Positions 18,789-35,787 of a DNA stretch of 64,000 nt are shown one piece after another. The first letter of the stretch is position 1, and every line of letters starts with the position of its first letter. The stretch spans positions 9,598 through 73,597 of the forward strand of contig CAYQXY010000004.1 of the NCBI GenBank assembly GCA_964421595.1, read 5' to 3'. The stretch is from an uncultured Bacteroidales bacterium (GTDB lineage Bacteria; Bacteroidota; Bacteroidia; Bacteroidales; PUMT01). Position numbers and translations under genes: made by a program. The notes under the pieces were generated by a model that made no database searches, was not told where the DNA came from, and saw only the letters and a list, made by a program, of their open reading frames with translations.

Positions 18789-18953
18789 TGTTTTATTGAG
18801 TTGCAGGTTTGCTGCAAAGGTATAAAAAATGATCAATCACTGAACCTTGCCAACTTCCTGGCGATCTTAATAAGGATGGGTGGCGTTTTGCCTTTTTTAC
18901 TCTTTAAAATTTGGTTATTTTAGCAGACGCAGAGGTCATCATAATTTATTCAA

Positions 18954-21900
18954 ATGGATAAGGGTATTATCAGTGTATTCTTCGTATTTGCTTTTCTTTT
19001 CTGTGGATTAACACAGGTGTCGAAGGGACAGACGCATACAGGGAGAGAAACGGGACTTGAGGAAAGGGCCTTACGGAGACTAGGCAATGTGCATGAAATA
19101 TTTGAAGGCTGGCATCATGTCGGTGAATTCCGGATTGACAGCTTAAGAGTCGATTCGGGAGAACAGAATATTTCGATTTGGTTTAACCCTCACCTGACCA
19201 ACATTCCTCTCCGCTTTCCATGGATAGAAAGTCTCAGGTATCAGCTTGCAAGCCGACTGGGGTACAGATTCAGGGATTATCAACTTGATCTGTATTCACG
19301 GGGAAAGTTGCTCGAATATTTTATACCAAATTATTACAGGGAAAATTATCTCGGTCAAGATCCTGCAAGATCAGCTGGTCCATTAGACAGCCGCCGGATT
19401 GTTGCCAGGGAAGACGGGAGTGAATATGGCGGCGGACTTACAGGATCGCATATCGCAGTGTGGCCAAGCCATGGATACCATTATGATGCCGTAAATGACA
19501 GATGGGAATGGCAAAGGGCAAGGCTGCACGGAACCATTGAGGATATGTACACATATTCCTATACTCATCAGTTCCTGGTTCCAATGCTCGAAAATGCCGG
19601 GGCTTATGTGCTGATGCCCAGGGAACGGGATATCCAGCCACTGGAAGTGATTGTAGATAATGATGGTTCGTCCGAAGGGTCTGAACTGATAATCAGGCAT
19701 GGAGTTCAGGATATGTGGGAGACATTTCCCGGTGGGTTTGCCATGAAAGATACTCTTTTTGAAGGAGAGAACCCCTTCAAAAGCGGCAGCCATATGCGTA
19801 TCAGAACCAGCGGGTTTTCCGAGTCATCGCTCACCTATATACCAGATATTCCTGAAGATGGAAATTATGCAGTTTATATTTCTTGGGCGTTTGCGCCTGA
19901 TAACCTTTCACAGGTGAAATGCAGTATCATCCACAGCGGCGGGAGAACAGATTTCAGTGTTGACCAGACTATGGGTGCAGGTACCTGGATTTATCTTGGC
20001 ACATTTCACTTTTTGAAGGGTAAGGACATGGAAGCAGGTAGCCTGGTACTATCAGGCAACAGCAATGAAAAGGGTTATATTACAGCCGATGCTGTACGCT
20101 TTGGTGGTGGCATGGGAAATGTTGCACGGAAATCAGGCGAAGAATATTTTCCGGCACAATGGTCACTATATGATAGCCAGCCAGATGATATTACTGAAAG
20201 GAGGTCACTTGAGTTCATCCGGGAACCTTCATGGAAGCTCAGCGGCCGGCCCCGGTATATGGAAGGAGCCAGGTATTATCTCCAGTATGCCGGGATGCCC
20301 GATTCTACGGTCTACAGTATCAACAGAGGAAAAAATGACTATAATGACGATTTCATGTCGAGGGGAGAGTGGGTGAACTTTCTCATGGGTGCCCCGATGG
20401 AAGTAACCGGAGAGCCGGCACAAGACAGTCCACTAATACCAATCGACCTTGTCCTTGCTTTCCATACTGATGCAGGTGTTACCCCGAACGACTCTGTCAT
20501 CGGCACACTGGCCATATACAGCAGTGAGAGAAATGAAGGAGTTTTTTATAATGGACAGTCGCGGATGGCCGGCCGTGATCTGGCCGATATTGTCCAGTCG
20601 CAGATAATAACTGATATCAGAATGCAGGTTAATGAAAACTGGACGCGTCGCGGTTTGTGGGACCGTCAGTACTCAGAGGCCTGGAGACCTCAGGTGCCGG
20701 CTATGCTTCTTGAACTTCTTTCCCATCAGAACCTCGCCGATCTTAGTTACGGGCTGGATCCAAGGTTCAGGTTCCTTGTCAGTCGCTCGATATATAAGGG
20801 CATACTGCGTTACCTGGCCTCTGGTCAGGGCAGGGAAGCAATTATTCAACCACTGCCTCCTGTTTTGATGGCTCTGGAATTTGCCGGTCAGCGACGTGTG
20901 AGGCTTAGCTGGGATGAAAATCATGATCCTCTTGAACCTACGGCCGGAGCGGATTATTACAAGGTATATATGAGTGTCGGACAATCAGGTTTTGATAATG
21001 GAAGAATTGTTAATAATAAATATACTGAGATAGAACTGCCTGAAGGGGGAGAGATATATAACTTCAGGGTAACCGCCATTAATGATGGAGGAGAGAGCAT
21101 GCCGGGTGAGACTCTTTCAACTTCTTCAGGTTATGATGATAAAAAACCGGTTTTGATTGTGAATGCTTTTACGCGATTGTCACCTCCCGCAATATTTGAT
21201 ACAGGTGAACAGGCCGGATTAGCCCGGTGGGAGGATAATGGTGTTGCCGACCGGTACGATATCAGCCATACTGGTGAGCCGTATGATTACCGGCGATCGA
21301 GCTTGTGGCTGGATGACGATAGTCCGGGATGGGGAGCAAGCTACGCCGATATGGAAGGAAAAATTATAAGGGGAAACAGTTTTGATTTACCTTTGCTTTA
21401 TGGGCGTTCACTGCAGGAGGGAGGCTACCCCTTTGTTTCGACAAGTAAGAAAGCCTTTGAATTTGGTATTCATAATCCCGAAGATTTTTCGGCGGTAATA
21501 ATGATATTCGGTAAAGAGCGCGGACAGCAGCGATGGGATGAGCCGGGGGTAACAGAATACAGGGTTTTTACACCGGCAATAATGGATGAACTGCGGAGCT
21601 TTGCAGAAAAGGGGGGGAATATATTTGTTTCAGGTGCTTACACAGGTACAGATATGGTTGAGAACAATGACACCATGGCGATAACTTTTGCAAGGGATGT
21701 TCTGGGTTTTACATGGAGGTCAGATTTTGCGACAAACAGGGGCGGTGTTTATGCCACAGATCAGTGTCCTCCTTCGTTTCCGCAACAGTTGACTTTTAAT
21801 TCAGGTTATAACCCTGAAATTTACACGGTTGAAGCGCCGGATGCCATAGAACCTGCCGGAGAAGATTCATGGAGAATTTACAGGTACTCTTCCGGCAGAA

Positions 21901-22040
21901 CAAGTGCCGGAGTATTAAAGAATGGCCATCACAGGACAGTAGTGCTGGGTTTTCCTTTTGAGACCATTATCTCTGAACAAAAGAGGCATGAACTTATGAG
22001 AGAGGTAATGAGATTTTTTGAAATTAACCAATCAGAATAA
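18954..22040 (+). CDS. Secreted multidomain N-acetylmuramoyl-L-alanine amidase-like protein (amidase_3 split by a golvesin-C-like domain, Fn3, unknown C-terminal domain)
   Basis: Signal peptide. Amidase-type motifs LAFHTDAG and PAMLLELLSHQN. Inserted domain DGNYAVYISW...VDQTMGAGTWIYLGTFHF...ITADAVRFGG. Fn3-like VRLSWDEN...YNFRVTAINDGGES. Confidence 0.7.
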   Translation: MDKGIISVFFVFAFLFCGLTQVSKGQTHTGRETGLEERALRRLGNVHEIFEGWHHVGEFRIDSLRVDSGEQNISIWFNPHLTNIPLRFPWIESLRYQLASRLGYRFRDYQLDLYSRGKLLEYFIPNYYRENYLGQDPARSAGPLDSRRIVAREDGSEYGGGLTGSHIAVWPSHGYHYDAVNDRWEWQRARLHGTIEDMYTYSYTHQFLVPMLENAGAYVLMPRERDIQPLEVIVDNDGSSEGSELIIRHGVQDMWETFPGGFAMKDTLFEGENPFKSGSHMRIRTSGFSESSLTYIPDIPEDGNYAVYISWAFAPDNLSQVKCSIIHSGGRTDFSVDQTMGAGTWIYLGTFHFLKGKDMEAGSLVLSGNSNEKGYITADAVRFGGGMGNVARKSGEEYFPAQWSLYDSQPDDITERRSLEFIREPSWKLSGRPRYMEGARYYLQYAGMPDSTVYSINRGKNDYNDDFMSRGEWVNFLMGAPMEVTGEPAQDSPLIPIDLVLAFHTDAGVTPNDSVIGTLAIYSSERNEGVFYNGQSRMAGRDLADIVQSQIITDIRMQVNENWTRRGLWDRQYSEAWRPQVPAMLLELLSHQNLADLSYGLDPRFRFLVSRSIYKGILRYLASGQGREAIIQPLPPVLMALEFAGQRRVRLSWDENHDPLEPTAGADYYKVYMSVGQSGFDNGRIVNNKYTEIELPEGGEIYNFRVTAINDGGESMPGETLSTSSGYDDKKPVLIVNAFTRLSPPAIFDTGEQAGLARWEDNGVADRYDISHTGEPYDYRRSSLWLDDDSPGWGASYADMEGKIIRGNSFDLPLLYGRSLQEGGYPFVSTSKKAFEFGIHNPEDFSAVIMIFGKERGQQRWDEPGVTEYRVFTPAIMDELRSFAEKGGNIFVSGAYTGTDMVENNDTMAITFARDVLGFTWRSDFATNRGGVYATDQCPPSFPQQLTFNSGYNPEIYTVEAPDAIEPAGEDSWRIYRYSSGRTSAGVLKNGHHRTVVLGFPFETIISEQKRHELMREVMRFFEINQSE

Positions 22041-22052
22041 AATATTTTAATA

Positions 22053-23543
22053 ATGAAATTTATGGAAAAGCGAATTACCGTTTTTATGCCGGCAGGTGAT
22101 CACCGAGATCTTCAGATGAATTTAGGACAGTTTGAAGAAGAAGGCACCATCTCTAAGGTTTTCCTTTCCGGTGAATCGGAGAATTTAAAAATACAGCTTA
22201 CCGGCAAGGCTAATATGGCTGATATACCGTCTCTTACCTCTACTTCAGCTGTTAAGAAGATGGCTTCGGTAGCTGAAACTGAGTATGTGCTTATCTGCAC
22301 CAGGCCCTTTCCCCTCCGGCTCGGGGAAAACTGCCTTCAAAGAATGCTTCAGGTTGCAGATGATACAGGAGCAGGGATGGTATATTCAGATTATTATGAA
22401 ATAAAAGAGGGGAAAATGATTCCCCATCCGGTTATTGATTATCAGCAGGGCAGTCTGCGTGATGATTTCAATTTCGGTTCCCTTATGTTCTTCCGGACAT
22501 CGGGGTTAAGGAATGCGGCAAAAAACATGAATGAGGAGTACCAGTTTGCTGCACTCTATGATCTGAGACTGAAAGTATCGCAAAAGGATTCAATTTTCCG
22601 GATACCGGAATTTTTATACGCTGAAATGGAAGCCGATTCCAGGCTTTCCGGGCAAAAGATGTTCGATTATGTAGACCCCAGGAACAGGCATGTGCAGATA
22701 GAAATGGAAAAAGCATGCACAGCTCACCTCAAAGAAACCGGTGCATGGCTTAAACCTGTGTTCAGGCCTGCCGGACTTACTGGTGGTGAATTCCCTGTTG
22801 AAGTTTCTGTGATAATACCTGTCAGAAACAGGGTTAAGACTATTCAGGATGCCGTCGATTCAGTTCTGAGTCAAAAAACCTCATTTAACTTTAATCTGAT
22901 AATAGTAGATAACCACTCCTCAGATGGCACAACCGAACTGCTGAATAAACTTTCCGGCACCGACAAGAGAATTATACATATTATACCTTCCCGTGATGAC
23001 CTCGGTATTGGCGGATGCTGGAATCTTGGAGTTTTTCATCCACAATGCGGACGGTTTGCTATCCAGCTTGACAGCGATGATATCTACATTGATAACAATG
23101 TGCTGCAGAAAATAACAGATGAGTTTTACAGGCAGGATTGCGTAATGATTGTCGGAAGCTATAAAATGGTTAATTTTAATCTCGAAGAGATACCTCCCGG
23201 ACTCATTGACCATCGTGAATGGACACCTGAAAACGGGCGCAACAATGCCTTGCGTATAAACGGTCTTGGTGCACCCAGGGCTTTTTACACCCCGGTTATC
23301 AGGGAAACAGGACTTCCCAATGTAAGTTATGGCGAGGATTATGCTCTTGGACTGGCTGTTTCACGAAACTATCAGATTGGAAGAATATATGAGCCGCTGT
23401 ATCTGTGCAGGAGATGGGATGAAAATACTGATTCTGCACTTGATATAAGTAAACTGAATACACACAATACTTATAAGGACAGGGTAAGGACTATTGAATT
23501 TCTGGCCAGAATATCGATGAACAATAAGTTTGATGGCAATTAA
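22053..23543 (+). CDS. Glycosyltransferase family 2 protein with an extra N-terminal GT-A-like half
   Basis: C-terminal GT2 signature VSVIIPVRNRVKTIQDAVDSVLSQ...IIVDNHSSDGT...QLDSDD. No signal peptide. Confidence 0.8.
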   Translation: MKFMEKRITVFMPAGDHRDLQMNLGQFEEEGTISKVFLSGESENLKIQLTGKANMADIPSLTSTSAVKKMASVAETEYVLICTRPFPLRLGENCLQRMLQVADDTGAGMVYSDYYEIKEGKMIPHPVIDYQQGSLRDDFNFGSLMFFRTSGLRNAAKNMNEEYQFAALYDLRLKVSQKDSIFRIPEFLYAEMEADSRLSGQKMFDYVDPRNRHVQIEMEKACTAHLKETGAWLKPVFRPAGLTGGEFPVEVSVIIPVRNRVKTIQDAVDSVLSQKTSFNFNLIIVDNHSSDGTTELLNKLSGTDKRIIHIIPSRDDLGIGGCWNLGVFHPQCGRFAIQLDSDDIYIDNNVLQKITDEFYRQDCVMIVGSYKMVNFNLEEIPPGLIDHREWTPENGRNNALRINGLGAPRAFYTPVIRETGLPNVSYGEDYALGLAVSRNYQIGRIYEPLYLCRRWDENTDSALDISKLNTHNTYKDRVRTIEFLARISMNNKFDGN

Positions 23544-24510
23544 GACAAATACAATTGAGGGAGCTGATGCGCAACGGGTCGAGAATCTGTTTGTGTCGCA
23601 GTTAAGGGACTGGAAACTGGCAGGTGACAATTACAGGGACCTGGAAAAGGTGATGACACGTACTTTGTTGCTGGAGGCCGGCCGCCATATAAGAATCCAG
23701 TATAACCCCGCCAGGATGATATCGTCAGCTGCCAGCGTCGACAAAAAGTCTGTCAGTGAACGACCCTGCTTTCTTTGTTCTTCAAATCTTCCTGTTGAAC
23801 AAAAGGGCCTCGATTTTAACGGACGTTATAAAATCCTGGTTAATCCATTTCCAATTTTCCCAAGGCATTTAACTATTCCCCTTAATGAGCATGTCGACCA
23901 GCTGATTGCCGGCCGGTTCAGTGACATGCTTGAGCTGGCGGAAGTACTTGAGGGTTTTACAGTCTTTTATAATGGTCCCCGATGCGGTGCAAGTGCCCCC
24001 GATCACTTCCACTTCCAGGCAGGAAATAAAGGGTTCATGCCTGTTGAGCAGGAAACAGGCCTTCATCAACTTAAAGTCATTGACGAAGTCAGGGGGTGCC
24101 GGATAATGAGCATGGAGCGAACCTGCCGGAATTCTGTCGTCCTTTCCGGAATGAATATTGAAGTTTTGACCGCCGTTTTCAATGAAATTTACAATATATT
24201 GCACAGTCTGATGCCTGAACGGGAAGAAGAACCTATGATCAATATACTGGCTTATAAGGAAGGTGATGGGTTCATAGTATGTATCTTTCCCCGAAAGGCT
24301 CACAGGCCGGCGCAATTCTTTGAAAAAGATGAGGGCCGGATACTGATTAGTCCCGCTTCGGTCGATTTTGGCGGTGTCATGATCACTCCCCGGTTTGAAG
24401 ATTATGAAAAGCTGGATACCGCTATTGTAAAGGATATTTTCAGGCAGGTAACAATGGGTATTCAGGAATGGGACAGGCTGATATCGATTCTGGAAAAGAC
24501 TGACTTCTAA
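23530..24510 (+). CDS. DUF4922-like HIT-superfamily nucleotidyltransferase/phosphorylase (GDP-hexose phosphorylase/GalT branch)
   Basis: The motif APDHFHFQAG is the HxHxQ HIT variant. Its start overlaps the GT2 stop by 14 nt. Confidence 0.65.
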   Translation: MMAIKTNTIEGADAQRVENLFVSQLRDWKLAGDNYRDLEKVMTRTLLLEAGRHIRIQYNPARMISSAASVDKKSVSERPCFLCSSNLPVEQKGLDFNGRYKILVNPFPIFPRHLTIPLNEHVDQLIAGRFSDMLELAEVLEGFTVFYNGPRCGASAPDHFHFQAGNKGFMPVEQETGLHQLKVIDEVRGCRIMSMERTCRNSVVLSGMNIEVLTAVFNEIYNILHSLMPEREEEPMINILAYKEGDGFIVCIFPRKAHRPAQFFEKDEGRILISPASVDFGGVMITPRFEDYEKLDTAIVKDIFRQVTMGIQEWDRLISILEKTDF

Positions 24511-24527
24511 ATTTAAATTATATTAAA

Positions 24528-25862
24528 ATGCAACCACAAATTAGTGTAGGTATACTTTTTTCCAAACAGGTTACCTTTATTTTGAACGGACGATATCGTC
24601 ATATTGAAAGTGGTATTGAATTTGAAGGTCCGGGAAAAGCAGTGATCGACAATGGAAAACTGCTGTTTGCAATAGGCAACAGTATAGTGAATGCCCGGTT
24701 TCCCATTGTGATGGAACCCATTTCATATGAAGGCTCAAGTTTTGACCTTAAGGAAGTTACAATTGGCATCAACTTTCACTGGGAAAGAAAAGAGGATCAG
24801 AGATTCAGGGGTTCACTGAGCATTATTGAAGAGAACGGACATCTTACGGCCATTAATATACTACCTCTTGAAGATTATCTTATAAGCGTCATTTCATCTG
24901 AAATGAGCGCCACATCATCTTCCGAACTGCTCAGAGCTCATGCAGTGGTTTCCCGCAGCTGGCTCCTCGCCCAGAAAGAGAAGGAGGAAAAATTAAAAGG
25001 TTCGGGCGAATATATTACCACACTTGAAAAGCCCGGCGAGGTTATAAGATGGTATGACCGGGAGGATCACCGTAATTTCGATGTTTGTGCTGACGATCAT
25101 TGTCAGAGATATCAGGGAATAACCAGGGCAGGTAACAGCAATGTTGAAGAGGCTGTAAATTCAACTTCCGGCAGCGTAATTGTATATGACGGAAATATTT
25201 GCGATGCCCGCTACTCCAAATGCTGTGGTGGCATAAGTGAGAGGTTCGAAAACGTTTGGGAACCGGTGGTGCATCCATATCTTACGAAAGTAATTGATAA
25301 TCCAGATGACCCTGAAGGTTTTGCTACCGATCTTGTAAATGAAGAAAATGCGAAGGCATGGATAAACGGTTACCCCGAAGCATTTTGTAATACAAAAAGC
25401 AGGTATATCCTGAGCCAGGTGTTGAACGACTATGATCAGGAGACTTTTGATTTTTTTCGTTGGACAGTAAATTATACCCAGCAGGATGTAAAAGAACTTT
25501 TAAAAAAGAAGGTTGGGCTTGACCTTGGGGATATTCTTGATATGGTGCCCGTTGAGAGAGGGGTGTCGGGGCGCCTGGTAAGACTTGAAATCAAAGGGAC
25601 AAATGGCTCAATGATACTGGGTAAGGAGCTGGAAATCAGGAAAGCCCTTTCAGCTTCTCATCTTTACAGTTCTGCATTTATAATCGAGAAGATAGATGGC
25701 GAAAACGGGATCCCTTCAGCATTTACGCTGAAAGGTGCAGGCTGGGGCCATGGAGTGGGGTTGTGCCAGATAGGTGCTGCGGTTATGGGTTCGGGAGGTT
25801 TCTCATATAAGGATATACTAACACACTATTTCCCCGGTGCTGAACTGGTCAAACGCTATTGA
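24528..25862 (+). CDS. SpoIID/LytB domain protein (lytic transglycosylase/amidase-enhancer family)
   Basis: SEMSATSSSELLRAHAVVSRSW, DDHCQRYQG, YSKCCGG and GHGVGLCQIGA motifs. The N-terminus MQPQISVGILFSKQ does not look like a signal peptide. Confidence 0.8.
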   Translation: MQPQISVGILFSKQVTFILNGRYRHIESGIEFEGPGKAVIDNGKLLFAIGNSIVNARFPIVMEPISYEGSSFDLKEVTIGINFHWERKEDQRFRGSLSIIEENGHLTAINILPLEDYLISVISSEMSATSSSELLRAHAVVSRSWLLAQKEKEEKLKGSGEYITTLEKPGEVIRWYDREDHRNFDVCADDHCQRYQGITRAGNSNVEEAVNSTSGSVIVYDGNICDARYSKCCGGISERFENVWEPVVHPYLTKVIDNPDDPEGFATDLVNEENAKAWINGYPEAFCNTKSRYILSQVLNDYDQETFDFFRWTVNYTQQDVKELLKKKVGLDLGDILDMVPVERGVSGRLVRLEIKGTNGSMILGKELEIRKALSASHLYSSAFIIEKIDGENGIPSAFTLKGAGWGHGVGLCQIGAAVMGSGGFSYKDILTHYFPGAELVKRY

Positions 25863-25897
25863 ATTCAATCTAATTCTCATACACTATTTTAATATCA

Positions 25898-27739
25898 ATG
25901 AAGAAAGTCAGTCACCGTTCTCCATGGGCCTGGATCCCAAGTCTTTATTTTGCCCAGGGCATTCCCTATGTCGTTGTAATGACCGTTTCGGTAATTATGT
26001 ATAAAAGGCTTGGCATATCGAATACCGATATAGCCTTATACACAAGCTGGCTTTATCTCCCATGGGTCATCAAACCTTTCTGGAGTCCTGTAGTTGATCT
26101 TTTCAGAACAAAAAGATGGTGGATCGTCATAATGCAGCTCTTTGTCGGTGCCGGACTTGCCGGGGTGGCATTTACAATACCCGGGCCTGCTTTTTTCCAG
26201 TATACACTGGCTTTTTTCTGGCTTCTTGCCTTTAGCTCAGCTACTCACGATATTGCCGCAGACGGGTTTTATATGCTTGGTCTTAAGGAACATGAGCAGG
26301 CATACTTTGTAGGTATAAGAAGTACTTTTTACAGATTTGCCATGATAACCGGACAGGGATTGCTGATAATTCTTGCCGGATCTATTGAGACCCGCACCGG
26401 ACTGGAGCCAGTAAGATTCACGGTCAGTGCCAGCCCGGAAATTCAGGAGGTTGTCTATGGATCGACAGGAGGTGATACAGGCAATGCTGAAAGAAATTTT
26501 GTTATTACTGCCACCGAACTTGCTTTGCCTGTCGGTAACCTGCCGGCTCAGCAAGCTGACAGTATCAGACAGTGGGCAGATATGCAAAATCTTGTAAACG
26601 GATTTGTGCTGCCCGACCGTGAAGTTGAGCAGAGGGTATCATGGTTTACCCGTACTGTCTCGCAGCCTTTCGGTGAATGGCTGAAGAGAAGTTTAGGGAC
26701 CCGGGAACAGGATATCAATTATGCAACAGCAACAAGGGGGCAAATCGGCCTGACAGGTGTTTCACTATCATCAGCGCCCCAGCCTGGTGATGAGGTAGTG
26801 CTCAACACAGTTTTTCAGAGGGGTGACGGCAGTATCAGACTGGTCAGTGGAGAAAGGCTGGTTTTTAATTCGTCAAACTGGAACCAGACAGGATGGATAG
26901 TAGTCCAGCTTGATCCGGCACTTGACCGGGAAGCCGAAGCCTTCTTCGAAGGATTGTCAGGAAATATTCCTCTGGCATGGTCTGTCACGTTTTTCTTCCT
27001 TACAGGAATGTTCTTGCTCTTTATGATTTACCACAGATTTTTTCTGCCTTATCCGGCTTCCGATACTGCCGCAGTTTCCGATGATAATCAGAATATCATT
27101 AAAGAATTTGCAGGAACATTCACTTCATTCTTTAAAAAAGCAAATATCGGACCTGCACTTGCCTTTCTTCTGCTGTACAGGTTGGGTGAAGCACAGCTGG
27201 TCAAGATGGCTTCGCCGTTTATGCTTGATCCGAGGGAGGCCGGGGGACTGGGACTGACAACGGGTGAAGTGGGCCTGATATATGGTACCATCGGTATTGT
27301 GGCGCTAACTCTGGGAGGTATACTCGGTGGTGTAATGGCATCAAAAAAAGGCCTTAAATACTGGATATTTCCAATGGCTCTTGCAATTAACATTCCCAAT
27401 ATCGTGTATGTTTTGCTTTCAAGATTTTCACCTGATGCCTTCTGGATAATATCAAGCGGCGTTGCTTTGGAACAGTTTGGTTATGGGTTCGGATTTACAG
27501 CCTATATGCTGTTTATGATACATTTTTCAGAAGGCAGTCATAAGACAGCTCATTTTGCTTTTTGTACCGGATTTATGGCGCTGGGAATGATGCTGCCGGG
27601 AATGATCTCCGGCTGGATACAGGAAATAGTAGGATACTACAATTTCTTTATCTGGGTTCTGATATGCACTATACCGGGCTTTATTACAATAATGTACCTT
27701 AAAATAGACCCTGGTTTCGGGGTTAAGAAAAAGGACTGA
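25898..27739 (+). CDS. ampG: AmpG-family MFS muropeptide permease with a ~190-aa insertion
   Basis: AmpG-like N-terminus (WIPSLYFAQGIPYVVV...LPWVIKPFWSPVVD). 613 aa. A non-hydrophobic insert covers about residues 164-356. Confidence 0.75.
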   Translation: MKKVSHRSPWAWIPSLYFAQGIPYVVVMTVSVIMYKRLGISNTDIALYTSWLYLPWVIKPFWSPVVDLFRTKRWWIVIMQLFVGAGLAGVAFTIPGPAFFQYTLAFFWLLAFSSATHDIAADGFYMLGLKEHEQAYFVGIRSTFYRFAMITGQGLLIILAGSIETRTGLEPVRFTVSASPEIQEVVYGSTGGDTGNAERNFVITATELALPVGNLPAQQADSIRQWADMQNLVNGFVLPDREVEQRVSWFTRTVSQPFGEWLKRSLGTREQDINYATATRGQIGLTGVSLSSAPQPGDEVVLNTVFQRGDGSIRLVSGERLVFNSSNWNQTGWIVVQLDPALDREAEAFFEGLSGNIPLAWSVTFFFLTGMFLLFMIYHRFFLPYPASDTAAVSDDNQNIIKEFAGTFTSFFKKANIGPALAFLLLYRLGEAQLVKMASPFMLDPREAGGLGLTTGEVGLIYGTIGIVALTLGGILGGVMASKKGLKYWIFPMALAINIPNIVYVLLSRFSPDAFWIISSGVALEQFGYGFGFTAYMLFMIHFSEGSHKTAHFAFCTGFMALGMMLPGMISGWIQEIVGYYNFFIWVLICTIPGFITIMYLKIDPGFGVKKKD

Positions 27740-27784
27740 CAAGTGAAATAAAAATTGTAAAAGTCTGATATTTAAGGAACCTTA

Positions 27785-28999
27785 TTAATAGATAAAGTAT
27801 TCACTTGCTTTCTGAACAAACAATTCAGTATCGCGGTTCCATAAATCAATAATATCCTCAACCATGAACCGCTGGCTGAACCTGAGCCTTATCTGGTCGC
27901 TTCCGGTTACCTTGTCAAACATATCGTGCCTTGCCGGGGCAAGATCAAAATGATTCCTGTCGGGGTACAAAACATACAACTCCTGCATTATGTAAAACTG
28001 TACAAGTGACAAATGGGCACTGGAAATATCTTTTAAGTGTATCTGGACCCCATGTACCATTATATCCTTTAACACACTGTAATAAGGCCTGTAGTGAACC
28101 GGCCTGAAAATAACTCCAGGCAGCTCCAGATCATTTAGTCTGCCGGCAAGTTTACCGGCATCGATCCAGTCAGCCGCCACCATCTGGAATGGCAGGGTAT
28201 AGCCAACCCCGATATTATAGATATAAAGCTCACCGAGAATTCCCGAAACCGGGTAGTAATATGAAGAATGTGCATGAGGAATATGTGGGGAAGCCGGCAC
28301 CCATGGAAGTCCTGTGTCTTCGAACATCATATCCCTATGCCACCCCTCCATTTCTATAACGGTAAGGTTGACCCTGTGTGAAAGCAGACCTTCACAATTA
28401 AGAAAAACTGCCAGCTCTCCAACTGTGAAACCATGGACATAAGGAATCGGAAACTGGCTGACAAATGAGGTGAATTCCTTTTCAACAAGCGGCCCTTCAA
28501 ATTTATTTCCCCCAAGTGGATTTGGCCTGTCAAGTACCATAAACTCAATATTGTTTTCGGCTGCTGCCTCCATGGCCAGGCCCAGAGTACTTATATATGT
28601 GTATGAACGGGATCCTATATCCTGGATGTCAAATATAAGAATTTCTATACCTTCAAGCATTTCCGGCGTTGGCTTGCGCGTAGCTCCGTAAAGGCTGTAT
28701 ACCGGCAGTCCGGTGTGCGGGTCAAAGATATTATCTACCTTTGCCCCGGCAGAAAAATCTCCCCTGATCCCGTGCTCAGGCCCGAATAGTGCAACCAGTT
28801 CAACCTGAGTGGCTTTGTGCAGTATGTCTGCCGTGGAAACAAGCTGGCTGTTAACACCGGTGGGATTGGTAATTAATCCGGCCCTCTTTCCTTTCAACGG
28901 TTCATAATCTTGTTCTGCCAGCATTTCTATGCCGGTTTTTACCTGTGCAGAGAGGGGCATAAAAGTAAATATCAGAAAAAAATAAATTAGCAATCTCAT
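27785..28999 (-). CDS. namZ: DUF1343 / exo-beta-N-acetylmuramidase NamZ-like protein
   Basis: From the internal ATG, giving MRLLIYFFLIFTFMPLSAQ (signal peptide). YbbC/NamZ-type GLITNPTGVNSQL...LFGPEHGIRGD. Confidence 0.8.
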   Translation of the reverse strand: MRLLIYFFLIFTFMPLSAQVKTGIEMLAEQDYEPLKGKRAGLITNPTGVNSQLVSTADILHKATQVELVALFGPEHGIRGDFSAGAKVDNIFDPHTGLPVYSLYGATRKPTPEMLEGIEILIFDIQDIGSRSYTYISTLGLAMEAAAENNIEFMVLDRPNPLGGNKFEGPLVEKEFTSFVSQFPIPYVHGFTVGELAVFLNCEGLLSHRVNLTVIEMEGWHRDMMFEDTGLPWVPASPHIPHAHSSYYYPVSGILGELYIYNIGVGYTLPFQMVAADWIDAGKLAGRLNDLELPGVIFRPVHYRPYYSVLKDIMVHGVQIHLKDISSAHLSLVQFYIMQELYVLYPDRNHFDLAPARHDMFDKVTGSDQIRLRFSQRFMVEDIIDLWNRDTELFVQKASEYFIY

Positions 29000-29151
29000 T
29001 ATGTTCGATTTATACTTAATACTTGTGACTTTGCAAAATCCTGCTTGCTGAAGCATGTTGTTTGACCTGGTATGAAGGTATTTTTTTTATATTGCATCTT
29101 TTTGTAAAAGTAAAAAAATCCAGTATATATATCCGATAACCTCAGGAAGCA

Positions 29152-30585
29152 ATGAGATTTTTTATACATATTTTTACCATCTTCATTATTTTATCCTGTA
29201 ACCGAAATGCCGCAAATAAAGCAATGATGGAAGAAGCCAGACACCTTATGGAGTCAAACCGGTTTGCCGGATTAATTGAATATGCTGAAAAAATTGATGC
29301 ATTGGCTGAAAGCCATTATGCTGATGAGCTTGATAGCATGGTTGACTATGCAGGCAGATATCTACTGGAATTTCCTTATACCGAAAATGATATTCTTGAA
29401 TTGTTGAATAGAGATTCAGTGAATGCAGATGAGAATTCTTTAAGAACCTGGGAAGAAGCCGGTGAGCTTGAGTATATGTGGATTGATGGTGAGCGAAGAT
29501 ATTTTAAATACGCTCACAGAAATTTATACAGAATTAATGATTCCTTAAGGCGTGAAAAAAGAATTGACGAAGAACGAAACAGGTCCCTTTATGAATTCTG
29601 TGCAGATGAAATTGCCCGGGTGATCGCATCTGCTTCCAGCTACGGGTACGGCACCCCGGTATGTCAGCAAGATATAAAGCTGAATTACAAAATTACAATA
29701 CAGGCAGATGCTGTTCCGGACGGAGAAATTATAAGGTGCTGGATGCCTTATCCTGTTGAAGGGCATATACGGCAGGGCATGGTTCATCTTGTGTCTTCCG
29801 ATCCGGGCAAATACATAATTGCTCCGGACAGTACAAAACAGCGAAGTATTTATTTCGAAAAAACTGCTGTTGAAGGTAAGGCAACGGAATTCAGTATAGA
29901 GCTGGAATTCAGAGCATGGAGTCAGTACTATAACCTTCCGGCACTTAAGGGGAATGTGAGTTCAAAAGGACCAGCTTTAAACGGCTGCTATACCAGTGAA
30001 AGACCTCCCCATATTACATTCAGTAATGAAATACAAGAGCTTGCAGGTAAAATTGTCACCAAAAATATGGATGCCCGTGAAAAAGTTGCTGCATTCTACC
30101 GCTGGTTAAATGACAATATTATCTGGACCTCTGCAATTGAATACGGACTCATGCCTGATATTCCCGGTTATGTTCTGAAAAACAGAAGAGGGGACTGTGG
30201 TATGCAGACATTGTTATTCCTGTCGCTGTGCAGATACGAGGGTATTCCTGCCAGATGGCAGAGCGGGTGGATGCTTCACCCCGGGCATGTAAATCTGCAT
30301 GACTGGAGCGAAGTATATATCGAACCTGCAGGGTGGGTCCCTGTTGATGTGTCTTTCAAGCTCCAGCCATCGGAAAATCAGAAGGTATCAGAATTTTATA
30401 TTTCGGGTATAGACAGCTACAGGCTGATTGTAAACAAGGATTATGGTACTCCTCTTTACCCCCCGAAAAAATTCCCCAGAAGTGAACCTCTCGATTTTCA
30501 GAGGGGCGAGGTTGAATGGAAGGGTGGAAATATTTACTTTAATAAATGGAAATATGATATGGATGTAAGTTACATTACTCCATGA
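29152..30585 (+). CDS. Transglutaminase-like cysteine peptidase-fold lipoprotein
   Basis: Lipobox ILSC. Cys-His-Asp core RRGDCGMQT...HDWSEVY...GWVPVD. Confidence 0.75.
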   Translation: MRFFIHIFTIFIILSCNRNAANKAMMEEARHLMESNRFAGLIEYAEKIDALAESHYADELDSMVDYAGRYLLEFPYTENDILELLNRDSVNADENSLRTWEEAGELEYMWIDGERRYFKYAHRNLYRINDSLRREKRIDEERNRSLYEFCADEIARVIASASSYGYGTPVCQQDIKLNYKITIQADAVPDGEIIRCWMPYPVEGHIRQGMVHLVSSDPGKYIIAPDSTKQRSIYFEKTAVEGKATEFSIELEFRAWSQYYNLPALKGNVSSKGPALNGCYTSERPPHITFSNEIQELAGKIVTKNMDAREKVAAFYRWLNDNIIWTSAIEYGLMPDIPGYVLKNRRGDCGMQTLLFLSLCRYEGIPARWQSGWMLHPGHVNLHDWSEVYIEPAGWVPVDVSFKLQPSENQKVSEFYISGIDSYRLIVNKDYGTPLYPPKKFPRSEPLDFQRGEVEWKGGNIYFNKWKYDMDVSYITP

Positions 30586-31655
30586 CACTAACTATGAAAA
30601 GTAAGTCCAGCACCATAGGCATCAGGTATCAGCCGTTCAGTTTAGAAATGCGCCATGTATTTACCATCTCAGGTGCAAGCAGGAAAACCAGTCCCTCAGT
30701 CCTCGTTGCCCTTGATTTTGCAGGTATGACAGGTTATGGAGAGGCTTCCATCCCTCCATATCTTGGCGAGACGACTGAAAGTGTAATACGGTTCCTTAAA
30801 AAGCTTGATTTTGTTCAGTTCAACTCACCTTTTCAGTTTACTGAAATCACCGACTATGTAATGAATACAGTTCCGGGGAATTTTGCGGCGAAAGCTTCTG
30901 TAGATATAGCACTCAATGACCTTGCAGGAAAAATAAGGGGTGAGCCATGGTTCAGCACCATGAAGATCAATCCCATGAATACTCCTTATACATCATTTAC
31001 GCTTGGAATTGATTCTGTTTCAGTAATCAGTAAAAAAATAAATGAAGCAGCTCCCTATCGTTATATAAAAGTAAAACTTGGTTCTGATTCAGATAAGGAA
31101 ACCATATCCTGTATAAACAGTATTACAGCCAAGCCCCTGGTTGTCGATGTAAACCAGGGGTGGGAAGATAAGTATAAAGCCCTGGATATGATTTGCTGGC
31201 TTGCCGAAAGAGGAGTGATAATGGTAGAACAGCCTTTGCCGGCAGCCAGGATGGACGATATTGCCTGGCTGACCAGGCACAGTCCTCTTCCGGTCTTTGC
31301 TGATGAGGCAGTCCAGACTATAAAAGATTTAGACAATATTACCGGGGTTTATGACGGGATAAACATTAAACTTATGAAATGTGGTGGTATGAGTGCCGGT
31401 CTGGAAATGATCAGAGAAGCACGGAAAAGGGGGCTGTCTGTAATGATTGGCTGTATGACCGAAACTTCCTGTGCAATTTCCGCAGCCGCTCATCTATCGC
31501 CGCTGTGTGATATGGCAGACCTGGACGGGAACCTGCTGATAACAAATGACCCGTTTTCGGGAGTTTTAATTGAAGATGGTAAAATCGTTCTCAATAACCG
31601 GCCAGGCATCGGTGTTGCCCTGCGTCCTGGTAATTTTCCCGTTTTTAAAAAATAA
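30582..31655 (+). CDS. Dipeptide epimerase (L-Ala-D/L-Glu epimerase, enolase superfamily)
   Basis: KVKLG, VDVNQGW, VEQP, ADE and KLMKCGG motifs. The ATGA start overlaps the previous stop. Confidence 0.85.
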   Translation: MTLTMKSKSSTIGIRYQPFSLEMRHVFTISGASRKTSPSVLVALDFAGMTGYGEASIPPYLGETTESVIRFLKKLDFVQFNSPFQFTEITDYVMNTVPGNFAAKASVDIALNDLAGKIRGEPWFSTMKINPMNTPYTSFTLGIDSVSVISKKINEAAPYRYIKVKLGSDSDKETISCINSITAKPLVVDVNQGWEDKYKALDMICWLAERGVIMVEQPLPAARMDDIAWLTRHSPLPVFADEAVQTIKDLDNITGVYDGINIKLMKCGGMSAGLEMIREARKRGLSVMIGCMTETSCAISAAAHLSPLCDMADLDGNLLITNDPFSGVLIEDGKIVLNNRPGIGVALRPGNFPVFKK

Positions 31656-31705
31656 ATTCCTAAACATTACAACCTTGAAACCTATTACTCGTCTTATTTG
31701 TATAA

Positions 31706-31829
31706 TGATGAATCTCCCATGTATGATGGCACAAAAAGAAATGAATAAAGCCTGGGTTATCCATCTGTGGCAACTACTTGACTGGCAAGTGTAACTTGCT
31801 TGTATTTAGATTGGTACTTATTATTTTTC
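31706..31829 (+). repeat. Intergenic structured element, copy C (more degenerate, upstream tandem unit)
   Basis: ATGAATCTCCCATGTATGATGGCACAAAAAGAAATGAATAAAGCCTGGGTTATCCATCTGTGGCAACTACTTGACTGGCAAGTGTAACTTGCTTGTATTTAGATTGGTACTTATTATTTTTCG. It runs directly into copy B. Confidence 0.8.
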
Positions 31830-31959
31830 GGATGAATCTCCCATGAGCCAAGGCACACAAAAAAGAAACGAATAATCAATGGGTGATCCATCCGTGGCAA
31901 CCACGTGATTAGCAATGGTAACTTACTTATATTTAGATTAGTACTTATAGATTTTTCGG
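31830..31959 (+). repeat. Intergenic structured element, copy B (full unit), ending at ATG 31960
   Basis: GGATGAATCTCCCATG, loop AGCCAAGGCACACAAAAAAGAAACGAATAATCA, ATGGGTGATCCATCC, hairpin CGTGG-CAA-CCACG (31893-31905), then GATTAGCAATGGTAACTTACTTATATTTAGATTAGTACTTATAGATTTTTCGG. Confidence 0.85.
31928..31935 (+). promoter_or_regulatory. Possible -7 promoter box TATATTTA (near TAnnTTTG) inside copy B
   Basis: 24 nt upstream of ATG 31960. Conserved as GTATTTA in copy C and TATATTTA in copy D. Confidence 0.35.
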
Positions 31960-32802
31960 ATGAATAGTGTAAAAAAAAGATACATAATGAAAAGTAAGTT
32001 TTATAAAGGGATTGCAATACCCTTTATGATTTTTTTTATCCTTATTGGTGGCTGCGAAAAGGAGGATTTTGCTCTCCCGGTTGGTTTTAGTTTGCATTTC
32101 ACAATTAAAAACGAGGCTATATTAAACGGCTCAATAACGATTGATGAGATTGGTTTGGGACTAAGTATGATTGATATTCGCGGTTACAGAGAACAAGGTG
32201 ATGATGTGTTCCTGACAAGGGAATTTGAGAATGGCGAAAACTTCATAATAAAACCTGCAACTGGAAACCCTGTTGAAAATCTGGATATTCCTCAAGGAAA
32301 TTACAACCCTATCGTATTTTCATTAATCTTCAAACCCGATGAAGACGAAAGTGACTTAACCGATGATATACTTGATTGGCTGGAAGATCTGGATGAGGAT
32401 GATGATATACAAGGACTTCAGGAAAGCTTAGGCGACATAATTGAGGATTATCTTGAGAATTTAACCCCCTGCATCATATTGAGAGGAAAATTCACTTACA
32501 ATAGCAGCACGAAACATATTGTTATTGTGGTAAATGACCCTCTAACCTTTCAAATCCATGGAAAGAACAGAAATGGAGGCTCTGAAGTAATACTTGATAA
32601 AAACTATGGTAATAATGGAAATCTGCAAATCAATCCATCCTACTGGTTTTCAGTTATCACACCTTCAATGTTGAATGATGCATTCATTGGATTGATTGAC
32701 GATGAAGAGTATATTTTTTTAAGCAAACATATAAACAGCCAGATTTACGGGGCTGTTTTCAATAGAATGGAGGAGTCAACTATTTTAACAATAAATGAAT
32801 AG
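31960..32802 (+). CDS. Hypothetical lipoprotein with a strongly acidic segment
   Basis: Lipobox FILIGGC. D/E-rich stretch KPDEDESDLTDDILDWLEDLDEDDDIQGL. The true start may be ATG 31987 (MKSKFYKG), because ATGAAT at 31960 also looks like the first bases of another repeat unit. Confidence 0.6.
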   Translation: MNSVKKRYIMKSKFYKGIAIPFMIFFILIGGCEKEDFALPVGFSLHFTIKNEAILNGSITIDEIGLGLSMIDIRGYREQGDDVFLTREFENGENFIIKPATGNPVENLDIPQGNYNPIVFSLIFKPDEDESDLTDDILDWLEDLDEDDDIQGLQESLGDIIEDYLENLTPCIILRGKFTYNSSTKHIVIVVNDPLTFQIHGKNRNGGSEVILDKNYGNNGNLQINPSYWFSVITPSMLNDAFIGLIDDEEYIFLSKHINSQIYGAVFNRMEESTILTINE

Positions 32803-32813: not shown

Positions 32814-33371
32814 ATGGTTGGAAATTCACATTATGAAGATTTAGAATTGTTAAGAGGTTGCCTTGAAAATGACAGAAGGTTACAGAAGCAGCTATACAAA
32901 AAATACTTTAAAGTTATGTATCAGATTTGCCTTTCATACAGCGGCGACAGGGTTGAGGCCAAAGATATTCTGCAGGAAGCATTCATAAAAGTATTTACAA
33001 ATCTCGAAAATTTTAACTCAAAAAACTCTTTGGAGGGCTGGATCAGGCGTATCGTTACCAACACATCCATTGATTACTTCAGAAAGAGAAAGAGGCTCGT
33101 TTTTCAGGATGAGTTTCCTGATGAACCTGATGAAGAAGAACGGGGAAGTTTTACATTCCAGGAATTTACAGATGATATTATTCTTCATTATATCAAGCGG
33201 TTACCCGATGGGGCAAGGGTTGTTTTCAATCTGTTTGCTATTGAAGGGTTACCCCATAAAGATATCGCTGAAAAGCTTAATATTAAGGAGGGGACTTCAA
33301 AGTCACAATATAAAAGGGCAAGGAATCTGTTAAAAGGATGGCTTTATGAACATGAACTAAGCAGTCAATGA
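32814..33371 (+). CDS. ECF-type RNA polymerase sigma-70 family factor
   Basis: Region 2 (DILQEAFIKVF...WIRRIVTNTSIDYFRKRKR) and region 4 (LPDGARVVFNLFAIEGLPHKDIAEKLNIKEGTSKSQYKRAR). Confidence 0.9.
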   Translation: MVGNSHYEDLELLRGCLENDRRLQKQLYKKYFKVMYQICLSYSGDRVEAKDILQEAFIKVFTNLENFNSKNSLEGWIRRIVTNTSIDYFRKRKRLVFQDEFPDEPDEEERGSFTFQEFTDDIILHYIKRLPDGARVVFNLFAIEGLPHKDIAEKLNIKEGTSKSQYKRARNLLKGWLYEHELSSQ

Positions 33372-34627
33372 CAAAAAGCAGGTTTGACATAGAGTATAAG
33401 AAATGGCTTCAGCAGATGGATGTTGATGATGATGATTCTGTATGGAACGAAATACAGGATGAATTGGATTTTAAAGAGACCTGGGATAATATTTCCGGTA
33501 GGCTCGATGAGATTCGGCCCAAAAGAGGGAGGTTGGTGCCAATGAATTACCTTAAAGCATTTGCTGCGGCAGCGGCTATTATCCTGATTATGTTATTGCC
33601 ATTCAGGTACTTTGCCGAGCAGGTAAATACCCCGCCCATCATTTCAGAGCTGGGCAACAATGCGGATGATAAGGAACAAATAAAATCAGTTGAGACAACT
33701 CCATTGAAAGCAGCAGAGGATGAGAAGGAATTAGTTCCTGAAATAGCCACTGAAGCCCCACTTGCAAATAACTCGTATAGAAATTCATTGGTGTCGTTTT
33801 CCAGCAACGAGTTAATACCAGATACAGAAAGCATAGATTCAGAAAATACAGCTTATGGTAACAATGAGCCAGACTTCCTTGGAAACGAGGAGCCAGACTT
33901 AAACAGAATGCAAAGTTTGCCATTTGATGCTAAAACTCTTTTAGCCATCAATGATGACATTCCACTTATTGCTATGGAAACAGCTTCCAAAATTGTTTCT
34001 GAGCCTGATAAATCTTCGGGCATTTCTTTTAGAGTTGCCGAGGTTGGATTGCTGTACGGGTATAAGAACACCTGGCTGCTGAACCACGAAACCCGTAATG
34101 GATTAAACCCCGGTAAATTAGGAAATGCACTGCCTACCTTCAACCAGGATATAGGGGTATCATCTATAGTTGAAGTAAATAACCGGCATCAGTTTGGGTT
34201 GGAATTTCTATGGAAATCGGAAGCCGGTCAGGATTATCAGCAGTATATAAACGCAAGCTATGTTGATAGAAATATTAATCTTGATTACCTGAAGTTTCAG
34301 GCATTTTATCTGTGGGAAAACCGCAGGGTTCCGGGTCAGGCAATTGTTGGTGGTTATTTTGCAAGTTTAACTATGGCCGAGGAGCAGCAAGCCAAAGTCC
34401 GCTTCAGCGTTGATAACAGCTATAGCAACCTTGATTATGGTTTACTTGCCGGATATCAGTTTAACATTGAGTTGAAAAACAGAATAGTATTCAAACCAGG
34501 TGTCAGGGTGAACTATAATCTGGTCAATATATTTGAGGGTGACGATATAACTCCCGGCCACTTTAAAAGGACCAAGAACTTTGCTGCCAGCTTCAATATG
34601 ACTCTTTCCTATAAATTTTTTAATTAA
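33368..34627 (+). CDS. Putative anti-sigma factor with a single TM, low-complexity linker and C-terminal outer-membrane beta-barrel-like domain
   Basis: ATGA overlap with the sigma gene. Short N-terminal cytoplasmic segment, TM at FAAAAAIILIMLLPF, an acidic/Ser/Pro-rich linker, and a C-terminal ~200 aa with alternating-residue beta-strand character ending SFNMTLSYKFFN. Confidence 0.6.
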   Translation: MTKSRFDIEYKKWLQQMDVDDDDSVWNEIQDELDFKETWDNISGRLDEIRPKRGRLVPMNYLKAFAAAAAIILIMLLPFRYFAEQVNTPPIISELGNNADDKEQIKSVETTPLKAAEDEKELVPEIATEAPLANNSYRNSLVSFSSNELIPDTESIDSENTAYGNNEPDFLGNEEPDLNRMQSLPFDAKTLLAINDDIPLIAMETASKIVSEPDKSSGISFRVAEVGLLYGYKNTWLLNHETRNGLNPGKLGNALPTFNQDIGVSSIVEVNNRHQFGLEFLWKSEAGQDYQQYINASYVDRNINLDYLKFQAFYLWENRRVPGQAIVGGYFASLTMAEEQQAKVRFSVDNSYSNLDYGLLAGYQFNIELKNRIVFKPGVRVNYNLVNIFEGDDITPGHFKRTKNFAASFNMTLSYKFFN

Positions 34628-34743: not shown

Positions 34744-35508
34744 CTAATTCAGTTCTTTAATTTTCACGTTCCTGAACCACACTTGTGATCCATGGTCCTG
34801 AAGGGCTATATGTCCTTTTGGATACCTGCCGTACCCGGGAAATTCCTTCCATTTACCTGAATTTACCAGTTCTTCCCATTCTTCCGACCATAATTCATAT
34901 TCAACAACTTTTTCACCATTCAGCCAGTGTTCAACATTTCCGTTGTCAACAATTATCCTGGTACTGTTCCATTCGCCGGCAGGCTTAACCGGTGCGTTAA
35001 CCGGTGCATGCATGCCATAATTTGCAGCAGTATACTGATCAGGGTCAAGCGGATCAGGATATCCTTCATCGTCAAGTATCTGGTATTCCGGACCTGTTGC
35101 ATATACGGCCGGATATTCTTCTTCTGCAACCAGATAAAGAATTCCGGAATTTCCCCCTTCGCTGATTCTCCATTCAGCTTCGAAAATGAAATTCTCAAAT
35201 TGCCTGCGGGTAACTATATCACCACCTATATCTCTACCTATCCCGCTGGCGACAAGGGTTCCCTGATGGGCATACCACCCTTCGTCAATTGTGAGGTCGT
35301 CTTTCCTGAATCCTCTCCAGCCTGTTGTGGTCCTTCCATCGAACAGAAGCTCCCATCCATCGGCTATTTCTTGTTCAGTCAGTACATTATGCTGTACAGT
35401 TTCTGCTTCTTCTTCTGCTTGTCTCTCAGTCCTTTGTCCGCATCCGGCAAGGGATGAAAAGCTAACTATCAGGACAACAAGGAGAAGGGATAAATTGTGT
35501 TTTTGCAT
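34744..35508 (-). CDS. DUF1080 (3-keto-disaccharide hydrolase-like) lipoprotein
   Basis: From the internal ATG, giving MQKHNLSLLLVVLIVSFSSLAGC. DUF1080-type WRGF...GNSGILY...GEWN...LQDHGSQVWFRNVKIKEL. Confidence 0.8.
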   Translation of the reverse strand: MQKHNLSLLLVVLIVSFSSLAGCGQRTERQAEEEAETVQHNVLTEQEIADGWELLFDGRTTTGWRGFRKDDLTIDEGWYAHQGTLVASGIGRDIGGDIVTRRQFENFIFEAEWRISEGGNSGILYLVAEEEYPAVYATGPEYQILDDEGYPDPLDPDQYTAANYGMHAPVNAPVKPAGEWNSTRIIVDNGNVEHWLNGEKVVEYELWSEEWEELVNSGKWKEFPGYGRYPKGHIALQDHGSQVWFRNVKIKELN

Positions 35509-35787
35509 TTTTACAACATTTTTAAAATTTATAATTGGTGTGCTATGTAGAAGTTTTGGAGGGAAACAGTTTACAGGTTCCCTTTCAGACAAAGATAGAT
35601 TATTTTTGGATTAATCAGGATCGCTTCTGACCAATAAAGCAACCAAATCAATCCATGCCTGTTAAAAGGGTGTGTTGGGAGATTGATGAAAAAAATGTAA
35701 ATTAGCAGCCTTTAAATGTATCATTTTCATGCCAGGTACACGATGTAACATGAAAACTCCCGGTTAAAAACAAAATAATTTCTTTAA

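Follow-up and report, generated by a model that had tools for sequence, protein, structure and literature searches.

The BOX elements of pneumococci (boxA-boxB(n)-boxC) are short, non-coding and modular, occur in one species group, lie in intergenic regions, are often co-transcribed, and are predicted to form stem-loops; they carry terminal inverted repeats and target-site duplications and have been judged to be parasitic repeats able to affect the expression of neighboring genes (PMC3049150). The Correia elements of Neisseria (CREE/NEMIS) are approximately 100-150 nt long, are inserted 5′ of genes, vary in presence among close strains, can create promoters and are transcribed into hairpins, and their insertion may take genes out of ancestral regulatory networks (PMC2649163). 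REP sequences and BIMEs are 20-40-bp extragenic palindromes with short loops and a terminal GTAG/CGTC tag, are associated with RAYT (Y1) transposases, occur singly or in arrays, and tolerate change in loops and stems (PMC3733652). We analyzed a 64,000-nt stretch of an uncultured Bacteroidales bacterium (contig CAYQXY010000004.1, positions 9,598 to 73,597; hereafter, the window), in which two tandem units at 31706-31959 precede an operon encoding a lipoprotein, a sigma factor of the extracytoplasmic function (ECF) type, and a 419-aa protein. With moderate confidence, we regard these units as copies of a lineage-restricted, non-coding, mosaic intergenic repeat of the BOX/Correia/REP kind, spread by tandem duplication and by copy-and-paste at ATGAA, rather than as parts of a designed regulon.

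Among the described elements, BOX and Correia were the closest analogues in kind. The likeness to BOX lies in the modular build with variable composition, the restriction to one lineage, and the intergenic position, but in the repeat described here the palindrome does not extend beyond the 5′ module, ATGAA stands at the unit ends as a direct repeat, and the 3′ modules abut start codons. Correia insertions are paralleled by the placement of units between an ECF-type promoter and its operon. However, in CREE a core is enclosed by 26-bp terminal inverted repeats, an IHF site is present, and processing by RNase III occurs, whereas here the unit is not enclosed by an inverted repeat and its promoter is only putative. 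The repeat was set apart from BOX and Correia by their described features and not by direct sequence comparison. With REP/BIME it shares an imperfect extragenic palindrome with conserved arms, single or arrayed, but no GTAG/CGTC lies beside the arms and most loops are approximately 31 nt, unlike the tag and size given for REP (PMC3733652); no RAYT gene was seen in the contig region examined (approximately 83 kb). The features shared with MITEs (miniature inverted-repeat transposable elements) were small size, lack of coding capacity, multiple copies, and filled and empty sites between relatives. Terminal inverted repeats were not among them: the unit at murQ runs from ATGAATCTCCC... to ...AAATT(A/T)TTCG(G/T), ends that are not inverted repeats, and its inverted repeat covers the first ~63 nt only. 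Integron attC sites are also imperfect palindromes, with conserved unpaired positions, a very variable loop, and a unit boundary inside one arm. The arms found here, in contrast, lack the RYYYAAC/GTTRRRY core and occur with no cassette open reading frames (ORFs) and no integrase nearby, and the resemblance is one of logic only. By the features tested, the repeat is not a member of BOX, Correia, or REP, and we class it as a new family within a kind of element already known.

The head-to-tail tandem arrangement at 31706-31959, which had been proposed in a sequence-only reading of the window, was recovered both by direct reading of the sequence and by Tandem Repeats Finder (31733-31965; period of 127, 1.8 copies, 83% matches, score of 340). 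The two units, designated C and B (coordinates of all features in Table 1), are 79% identical; both start with (G)GATGAATCTCCCATG and end with TTTTTCGG, and a third GGATGAAT follows unit B at 31958-31965. Unit C scored 70.8 bits with the covariance model (R1) and 1.9e-16 with nhmmer (t1). Recurrence exceeded chance: the 16-mer arms each matched 8 times at ≤3 mismatches compared with 0.6-0.7 expected, a count reached in none of 100 shuffles, and a 22-mer of the 3′ segment matched 3 times when none was expected. The nhmmer E-values of the copies ranged from 1e-17 to 1e-22. The sequence examined comprised ~83 kb of the source genome, which contained five full 5′ modules and one remnant, and ~140 kb of relatives.

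Units were 124-140 nt long, non-coding, and composed of two modules. The 5′ module is an imperfect palindrome with arms of about GGAT(G/C)AATCTCCCATG and CATGGGTGATYCATCC and a loop that is variable, although often conserved within a subfamily. In the 16-nt imperfect inverted repeat reported earlier, only 13 of the 16 positions pair in unit B, and a T.T mismatch in the long stem (ATCTCCC vs. GGGTGAT) is present in most copies. The gene-proximal 3′ modules are of at least two unrelated kinds, type-1 with a TATATTTA box (31928-31935 in unit B) and type-2 with TCAATTTG...CTGCTTTTTTAG. Each unit opens with an ATGAA that belongs to the left arm, and the next ATGAA after a unit belongs either to another unit or to the first codons of the gene. 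The genes behind the copies are unrelated: a Zn-dehydrogenase gene with a histidine kinase gene, murQ, the ECF operon, and a gene of the 3-keto-disaccharide-hydrolase family. A full minus-strand copy does end at the murQ ATG, and its 3′ segment differs from that of unit B at 6 of 53 positions, in agreement by sequence reading and alignment with the earlier count; the compensatory difference in the small hairpin, CGTGG/CCACG in unit B and CGTTG/CAACG at murQ, also held. At the Zn-dehydrogenase gene, the 5′ hairpin module had been recognized correctly, but its 3′ side proved to be a second repeated module (type-2), with partial type-2 sequence upstream. This copy scored 87.4 bits with the covariance model and 2.3e-22 with nhmmer (t2).

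Through protein homologues, syntenic loci were obtained for three close lineages, together with two distant orthologues (L027 and L029; 73-76% protein identity). Four-fold-site identity to the window was ~0.83 in the nearest lineage, ENA ZHEN22 (L011, L012, and L022), ~0.69-0.78 in JGI Ga0645779 (L008-L010, L020, and L021), and ~0.63-0.76 in JGI Ga0645780/81 (L006, L007, and L023). The named relatives of the window proteins were Bacteroidales (Mariniphaga, Tenuifilaceae, Geofilum, and Lentimicrobium). For L008, the independent contigs L009, L010, and L021 confirmed the repeat loci that were used. Elsewhere in L008 (JGI Ga0645779_00264, 14851-20812), the genes for GMP synthase, an S41 peptidase, RlmL, and others, which are intact in the window, are split into short ORFs; this probably reflects a frameshift-rich assembly rather than real pseudogenes.

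The comparison at murQ showed insertion polymorphism. The spacer between the murK-like kinase gene and murQ was 156 nt long with the unit in the window and 163 nt long with the unit in L022, whereas in L020/L021 and L023 it was 36 nt long and held no trace of the unit. With a filled site in both the window and L022 and an empty one in L020/L021 and L023, the murQ unit is an insertion into the operon spacer. The junctions of the filled site were clean (...TATACA|ATGAATC...TTCGG|ATGAAC), and the empty sites read ...TATATA|ATGGAA or ...AAATA|ATGGAT. The ATGAA that flanks every unit also belongs to the left arm, and the empty sites have ATGGAA or ATGGAT, not ATGAA.

At the lipoprotein/sigma operon, the units proved to be separate from the probable promoter. 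ECF-sigma promoters have the consensus layout AAC-N16-CGTC, and AAC-N14-16-CGTC had a single intergenic match in the window (31671-31693), for which a promoter function is suggested by this general consensus. The match falls in a conserved block, ATTACAACCTT-N13-CGTCTTATTT..TAATGG (31664-31705), that was invariant in six orthologues of 73-100% protein identity, among them L027 and L029, where the loci are non-syntenic, the upstream genes differ, and the repeat is lacking. The block is probably the autoregulated promoter of the lipoprotein/sigma/anti-sigma operon, the three-gene order of which was kept in all orthologous loci fetched. The block lies upstream of the repeat units, and no AAC-N16-CGTC motif was found within the units, including the murQ and dehydrogenase copies. 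Since the units lie downstream of this promoter block, they are inserted in the 5′ leader of the operon; the leader was approximately 290 nt long in the window, with two units, and approximately 50-60 nt long in L027 and L029. The lipoprotein had been taken to start at ATG 31960, which is probably not the case because a run of seven A residues (A7) replaces the A8 of the window in L006 and L008 and puts this ATG out of frame. Translation likely begins at ATG 31987 (MKSKF...LIGGC).

Module composition changed rapidly at this locus and at the dehydrogenase gene. Orthologues of unit B were present in L006, L011, and L008. The lipoprotein locus of L006 and L011 has the order [hairpin + type-2][hairpin + type-1], whereas the window has [hairpin + type-1] twice; in L011 the loop of unit 1 is deleted, and L008 has one unit with the left arm lost (the same sequence was found in L009 and L010). 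Upstream of the dehydrogenase gene, the 3′ module was type-2 in the window, L020, and L023 but type-1 in L022, joined exactly at ATGAAAACC. L020 has three hairpin-plus-type-2 units at this locus, one of them with a perfect 12-bp hairpin and a 7-nt loop, and in L023 a short degenerate hairpin is flanked by two type-2 modules; the partial type-2 sequence at 10092-10192 of the window is what is left of a longer tandem array. At the hydrolase-family gene, two fuller tandem copies of a diverged subfamily with a different loop (59 and 49 bits) lie upstream of a canonical TATCTTTG box in L008, compared with decayed versions in L006 and L011, that of L006 being degenerate. Unit counts ranged from 1 to 2 at the lipoprotein locus and from 2 to 3 at the dehydrogenase locus, with 2 in L008 vs. 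1 remnant elsewhere at the hydrolase locus. Degenerate copies were seen in L020, L023, L006, and the window (35643-35688). A further diverged copy (L025 17735-17809, 8 kb beyond the window start), with CCCGCG/TGCGGG arms, lies between two genes and is antisense to both. The claim that all copies are oriented like the genes they precede thus held inside the window but not for this copy. Across copies, the arms were kept while loops varied from 7 nt (L020) and 11 nt (L023) to 31-33 nt and ~45 nt (L025).

Searches beyond these loci returned no true match. A covariance model built from 13 copies, run over 222 kb and over the window with filters off, found no copies beyond the known ones. The earlier failure to match the element to a regulatory RNA was upheld by Rfam, which gave 0 window matches at gathering thresholds; the best sub-threshold matches at 31600-32050 (E = 0.83-2.8) were far below the cut-offs. 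Three different patterns were used in the collection scans. An exact-pattern scan of 185,579 species genomes, a collection outside which the close relatives fall, returned 4 matches in unrelated phyla, about the number expected by chance. In JGI metagenome contigs, a collection that likewise leaves the close relatives outside, the first pattern, which did match the known loci, had 0 matches, and the second had 7, judged to be due to chance. One of these 7, with similar flanks, was rejected since it sits in the C-terminus of a phosphofructokinase-like ORF. The scan of viral contigs had 0 matches, and BLAST against plasmids and phages gave no match. Because neither Rfam, nor the collection scans, nor the plasmid and phage BLAST gave a true match, the repeat family is confined to a narrow Bacteroidales lineage. 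The window encodes neither a transposase nor a recombinase, and no enzyme of the Y1/HUH or tyrosine-recombinase type was found in the 83 kb examined.

Folded as RNA, whole units had z-scores between -0.76 and +0.18, no better than shuffles; folded as DNA, the 5′ modules ranged from +0.7 to -2.05, except for the short L020 hairpin (-6.6). Among 13 copies, 79.6% of stem cells pair, and double changes affect 4 of 15 pairs but only 6 of 191 cells; the covariation score was reached by shuffles in 33-45 of 500 runs. RNAalifold with six type-1 units recovered both hairpins with an unfavorable covariation term (+0.7) and a double change in 1 of 16 pairs. Pairing matters somewhat, and structural support is weak. 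Identity between orthologous modules was 0.83-0.90 for 5′ modules, 0.72-0.95 for type-1, and 0.80 for type-2, when four-fold sites ranged from 0.63 to 0.92 by pair, the promoter block from 0.92 to 0.94, and the 27-nt leader between unit B and the probable lipoprotein start was at 1.00. Relative to the nearest lineage, the 5′ modules were close to neutral (0.83-0.90 vs. ~0.83 at four-fold sites). The TATATTTA box departs at the final G from the Bacteroidetes -7 consensus TAnnTTTG, of which the canonical form occurs upstream of several window genes, and the box is lost in L011.

Several smaller candidates were tried within the units and rejected. A leader peptide or micro-ORF (MNLP*, MSQGTQK...) is not maintained: where other copies have the arm ATG, L011 and L022 read CCCACG and L025 reads CCCGCG, all three have lost the loop ATG, and no ORF is conserved, as 1-nt indels in the A-run shift the frame. 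For a sigma-54 promoter in the loop, GGCAC is present and TTGC is absent at the required spacing. For an ECF-type promoter in the type-1 module, TG(T/C)AAC is present with no CGTC-type -10 after it, and an indel in L008 breaks the spacing. There is no U-run after either hairpin, as an intrinsic terminator would have.

The sequence-only reading had offered a shared operator/promoter cassette, a leader or small RNA, and a promoter-carrying miniature repeat spreading by duplication as candidate roles. The last is the best supported of the three as regards repeat and spread, through insertion polymorphism, module swaps, tandem arrays, and decay; its promoter is putative. As we picture it, the family would multiply in place as tandem arrays, units would move or be exchanged between loci by copy-and-paste at ATGAA junctions, and copies would then decay. 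The route may be microhomology-mediated template switching, palindrome-aided illegitimate recombination, or a trans-acting enzyme; with ATGAA at both unit ends, 5 nt of microhomology and the palindrome could drive template switching. At the sigma operon, the two units between the native promoter and the lipoprotein start lengthen the leader. Hairpins would be added to transcripts in this 5′ leader and in the murK-murQ intercistronic region, and a weak housekeeping-type promoter may be supplied approximately 25 nt before the ATG. Any such effects on expression would be by-products of a largely selfish or neutral repeat. Some observations weigh against this account. No terminal inverted repeats were present at the unit ends and no unambiguous target-site duplication was seen. 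The in-window copies all share the orientation of the downstream gene and two of the loci are in transcribed regions, which a functional RNA predicts likewise. The 5′ modules exceeded four-fold sites in the comparisons of the window with L006 and L020 (0.85-0.89 vs. 0.63-0.76), which suggests some selection on them or repeated conversion from a conserved source, although the constraint is modest. Compensatory changes also occur: in L025, CCCATG/CATGGG is replaced by CCCGCG/TGCGGG, the L008 subfamily has C-G in place of one G-C pair, and in the small hairpin a G-C pair becomes a G.A mismatch (L022) and then T-A. Finally, the copy number and orientation bias come from a small sample, the ~83 kb of the source genome and ~140 kb of relatives.

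One rival account makes the units functional cis-acting leader or intercistronic RNAs, with both hairpins controlling mRNA stability, processing, or translation and tandem copies acting additively. Transcription of the units is to be expected at two loci, given their position downstream of the ECF-type promoter at one and within the murK-murQ operon at the other; their orientation matches that of the gene in the window, the 5′ modules exceed four-fold sites in two comparisons, the loop sequence is conserved in the main subfamily, and a few compensatory changes are present. We nevertheless consider such an RNA unlikely, and the leader or small RNA proposed earlier is weakly supported. Fold z-scores are near 0 for most copies, the short L020 hairpin alone being strongly stable; the RNAalifold covariation is unfavorable, shuffles reach the covariation score in 33 of 500 runs, the paired fraction of stem cells is 79.6%, and the T.T mismatch persists in the stem. 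In addition, the L008 copies at the hydrolase gene lie upstream of the canonical TATCTTTG box and so are probably outside the mRNA, the L025 copy is antisense to its neighbors, murQ of close relatives lacks the element, and an arm or loop is lost in some orthologues. Absence at murQ in two lineages also counts against the proposal that the units are a shared operator and promoter of a small regulon (dehydrogenase, murQ, and sigma operon) under some regulator or the downstream ECF sigma. The same sequence does stand before three transcription units in the window, and within the type-1 module there are TG(T/C)AAC-like and TATATTTA motifs approximately 25-45 nt before the ATG. However, the operator idea fails because the insertion is polymorphic and the half-site spacing varies by copy (7, 11, 31-33, or ~45 nt), when a dimeric operator needs fixed spacing. 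The ECF-regulon idea fails because the ECF-type promoter is a separate upstream block, invariant and present without units in L027 and L029, and no AAC-N16-CGTC lies inside the units. Furthermore, close relatives have different 3′ modules before the same gene, the spacing from the AAC-like motif to the box is altered in L008 by a 4-nt deletion, and L011 lacks the TATATTTA box. The operator/promoter cassette of the sequence-only reading is accordingly not supported, and we regard a regulon of either sort as very improbable.

In another rival account, the palindrome would be recognized by a dedicated enzyme whose gene lies elsewhere in the genome (of the Y1/HUH or tyrosine-recombinase type) and which inserts leader or promoter cassettes at ATGAA and hence preferentially at start codons. 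Every unit junction is at ATGAA, both for the clean insertion before murQ and for the exchange of type-1 and type-2 at the dehydrogenase ATG; the crossover point lies inside a palindrome arm, and arms are kept while loops vary, as expected for a hairpin recognized as such. This is a doubtful explanation to which we give little weight, as the 83 kb examined encode no enzyme of this kind, the junctions are not independent observations given that ATGAA belongs to the repeat itself, a 5-base microhomology with the palindrome could suffice for template switching, and the copies in L008 and L025 do not sit at start codons. If it were true, units would be placed at genes starting with Met-Lys or Met-Asn, rewiring 5′ regions with reading frames intact.

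With the mosaic repeat as the favored account, the apparent control region of the ECF sigma operon is a recent insertion, with the deeply conserved ECF-type promoter just upstream of it, a situation by which annotators would otherwise be misled. More generally, the 5′ regions of ordinary genes (murQ, dehydrogenase, and sigma operon) have been rebuilt fast in this uncultured Bacteroidales lineage, with repeat pieces swapped between genomes approximately 8-15% apart in protein sequence. Should promoters be carried by the 3′ modules, differences in expression between close relatives would have a natural source in this family, and the clean ATGAA junctions make it useful material for studying how such repeats move.

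Table 1. Repeat copies and associated features of the window.
Feature	Position	Strand	Description
5′ hairpin module + type-2 3′ module	10204-10342	+	5′ module 10204-10266, type-2 module 10265-10342; ends at Zn-dehydrogenase ATG 10343
Partial diverged type-2 module(s)	10092-10192	+	nhmmer t2 4.7e-06 (10133-10192) and 0.088 (10092-10127)
Single full unit at murQ	17796-17925	-	5′ module 17862-17925, type-1 3′ module 17796-17863; between murK-like kinase gene and murQ
Predicted native ECF-type promoter	31667-31699	+	ACAACCTT...CGTCTTATTT; -35-like ACAACC, AAC 31671-31673; -10-like CGTC 31690-31693
Unit C	31706-31829	+	5′ hairpin module 31706-31766, type-1 3′ module 31767-31829; more diverged tandem copy
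Unit B	31830-31959	+	5′ hairpin module 31830-31893; small hairpin CGTGGCAACCACG 31893-31905; type-1 3′ module, ends TTTTTCGG
ATGAAT (partial third unit start, junction repeat) and conserved leader	31960-31986	+	reaches probable lipoprotein start ATG 31987
Lipoprotein gene	31987-32802	+	no Pfam match
ECF sigma gene	32814-33371	+	identified by Pfam
419-aa protein gene	33368-34627	+	putative anti-sigma of the sequence-only reading; sub-threshold C-terminal beta-barrel match
Decayed hairpin copy	35643-35688	-	CATCAATCTCCCA...CATGGATTGATTTGG; upstream of TATCTTTG box of 3-keto-disaccharide-hydrolase-family gene
MurNAc/peptidoglycan-recycling cluster genes	16956-31655		murQ, BadF-type murK-like kinase, 1028-aa Golvesin_C/amidase protein, GT2, DUF4922, SpoIID
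MurNAc/peptidoglycan-recycling cluster, further genes	16956-31655		MFS transporter, NamZ, transglutaminase-like protein, Ala-Glu epimerase

The murQ copy lies within a complete-looking MurNAc/peptidoglycan-recycling cluster (Table 1). The 27-nt leader before the probable lipoprotein start, ATGAATAGTGTAAAAAAAAGATACATA, was identical to that of L011 at 27 of 27 positions and to that of L006 at 26 of 26, the A8/A7 run length aside; this conservation is far above that of four-fold sites, and the leader may be a translation-initiation region. A second ECF-type sigma gene (Sigma70_r2/r4_2) is located at 63346-63921 on the plus strand, and no repeat unit was detected beside it in the window. The short L020 hairpin (18656-18682; GGATCACCCATG-7 nt-CATGGGTGAT) pairs perfectly over 12 bp; it shares its arms with the 5′ module, has hardly any loop, and gave the z-score of -6.6 as DNA reported above, pointing to a long loop that is dispensable or secondarily acquired. 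At the hydrolase-family gene, the canonical Bacteroidetes -7 box TATCTTTG (35590-35597, minus strand) overlaps the mechanically called TTG start of ORF 34744-35592 (minus strand); the true start must lie farther downstream, as in the relatives, where 254 aa are called. Finally, a 25-nt direct repeat (TAAAGTAAGTGTCTGGATCAGAATG; two copies, 96% identical) was found at 57889-57939, between the ORFs 56727-57704 (plus strand) and 58043-58984 (minus strand).

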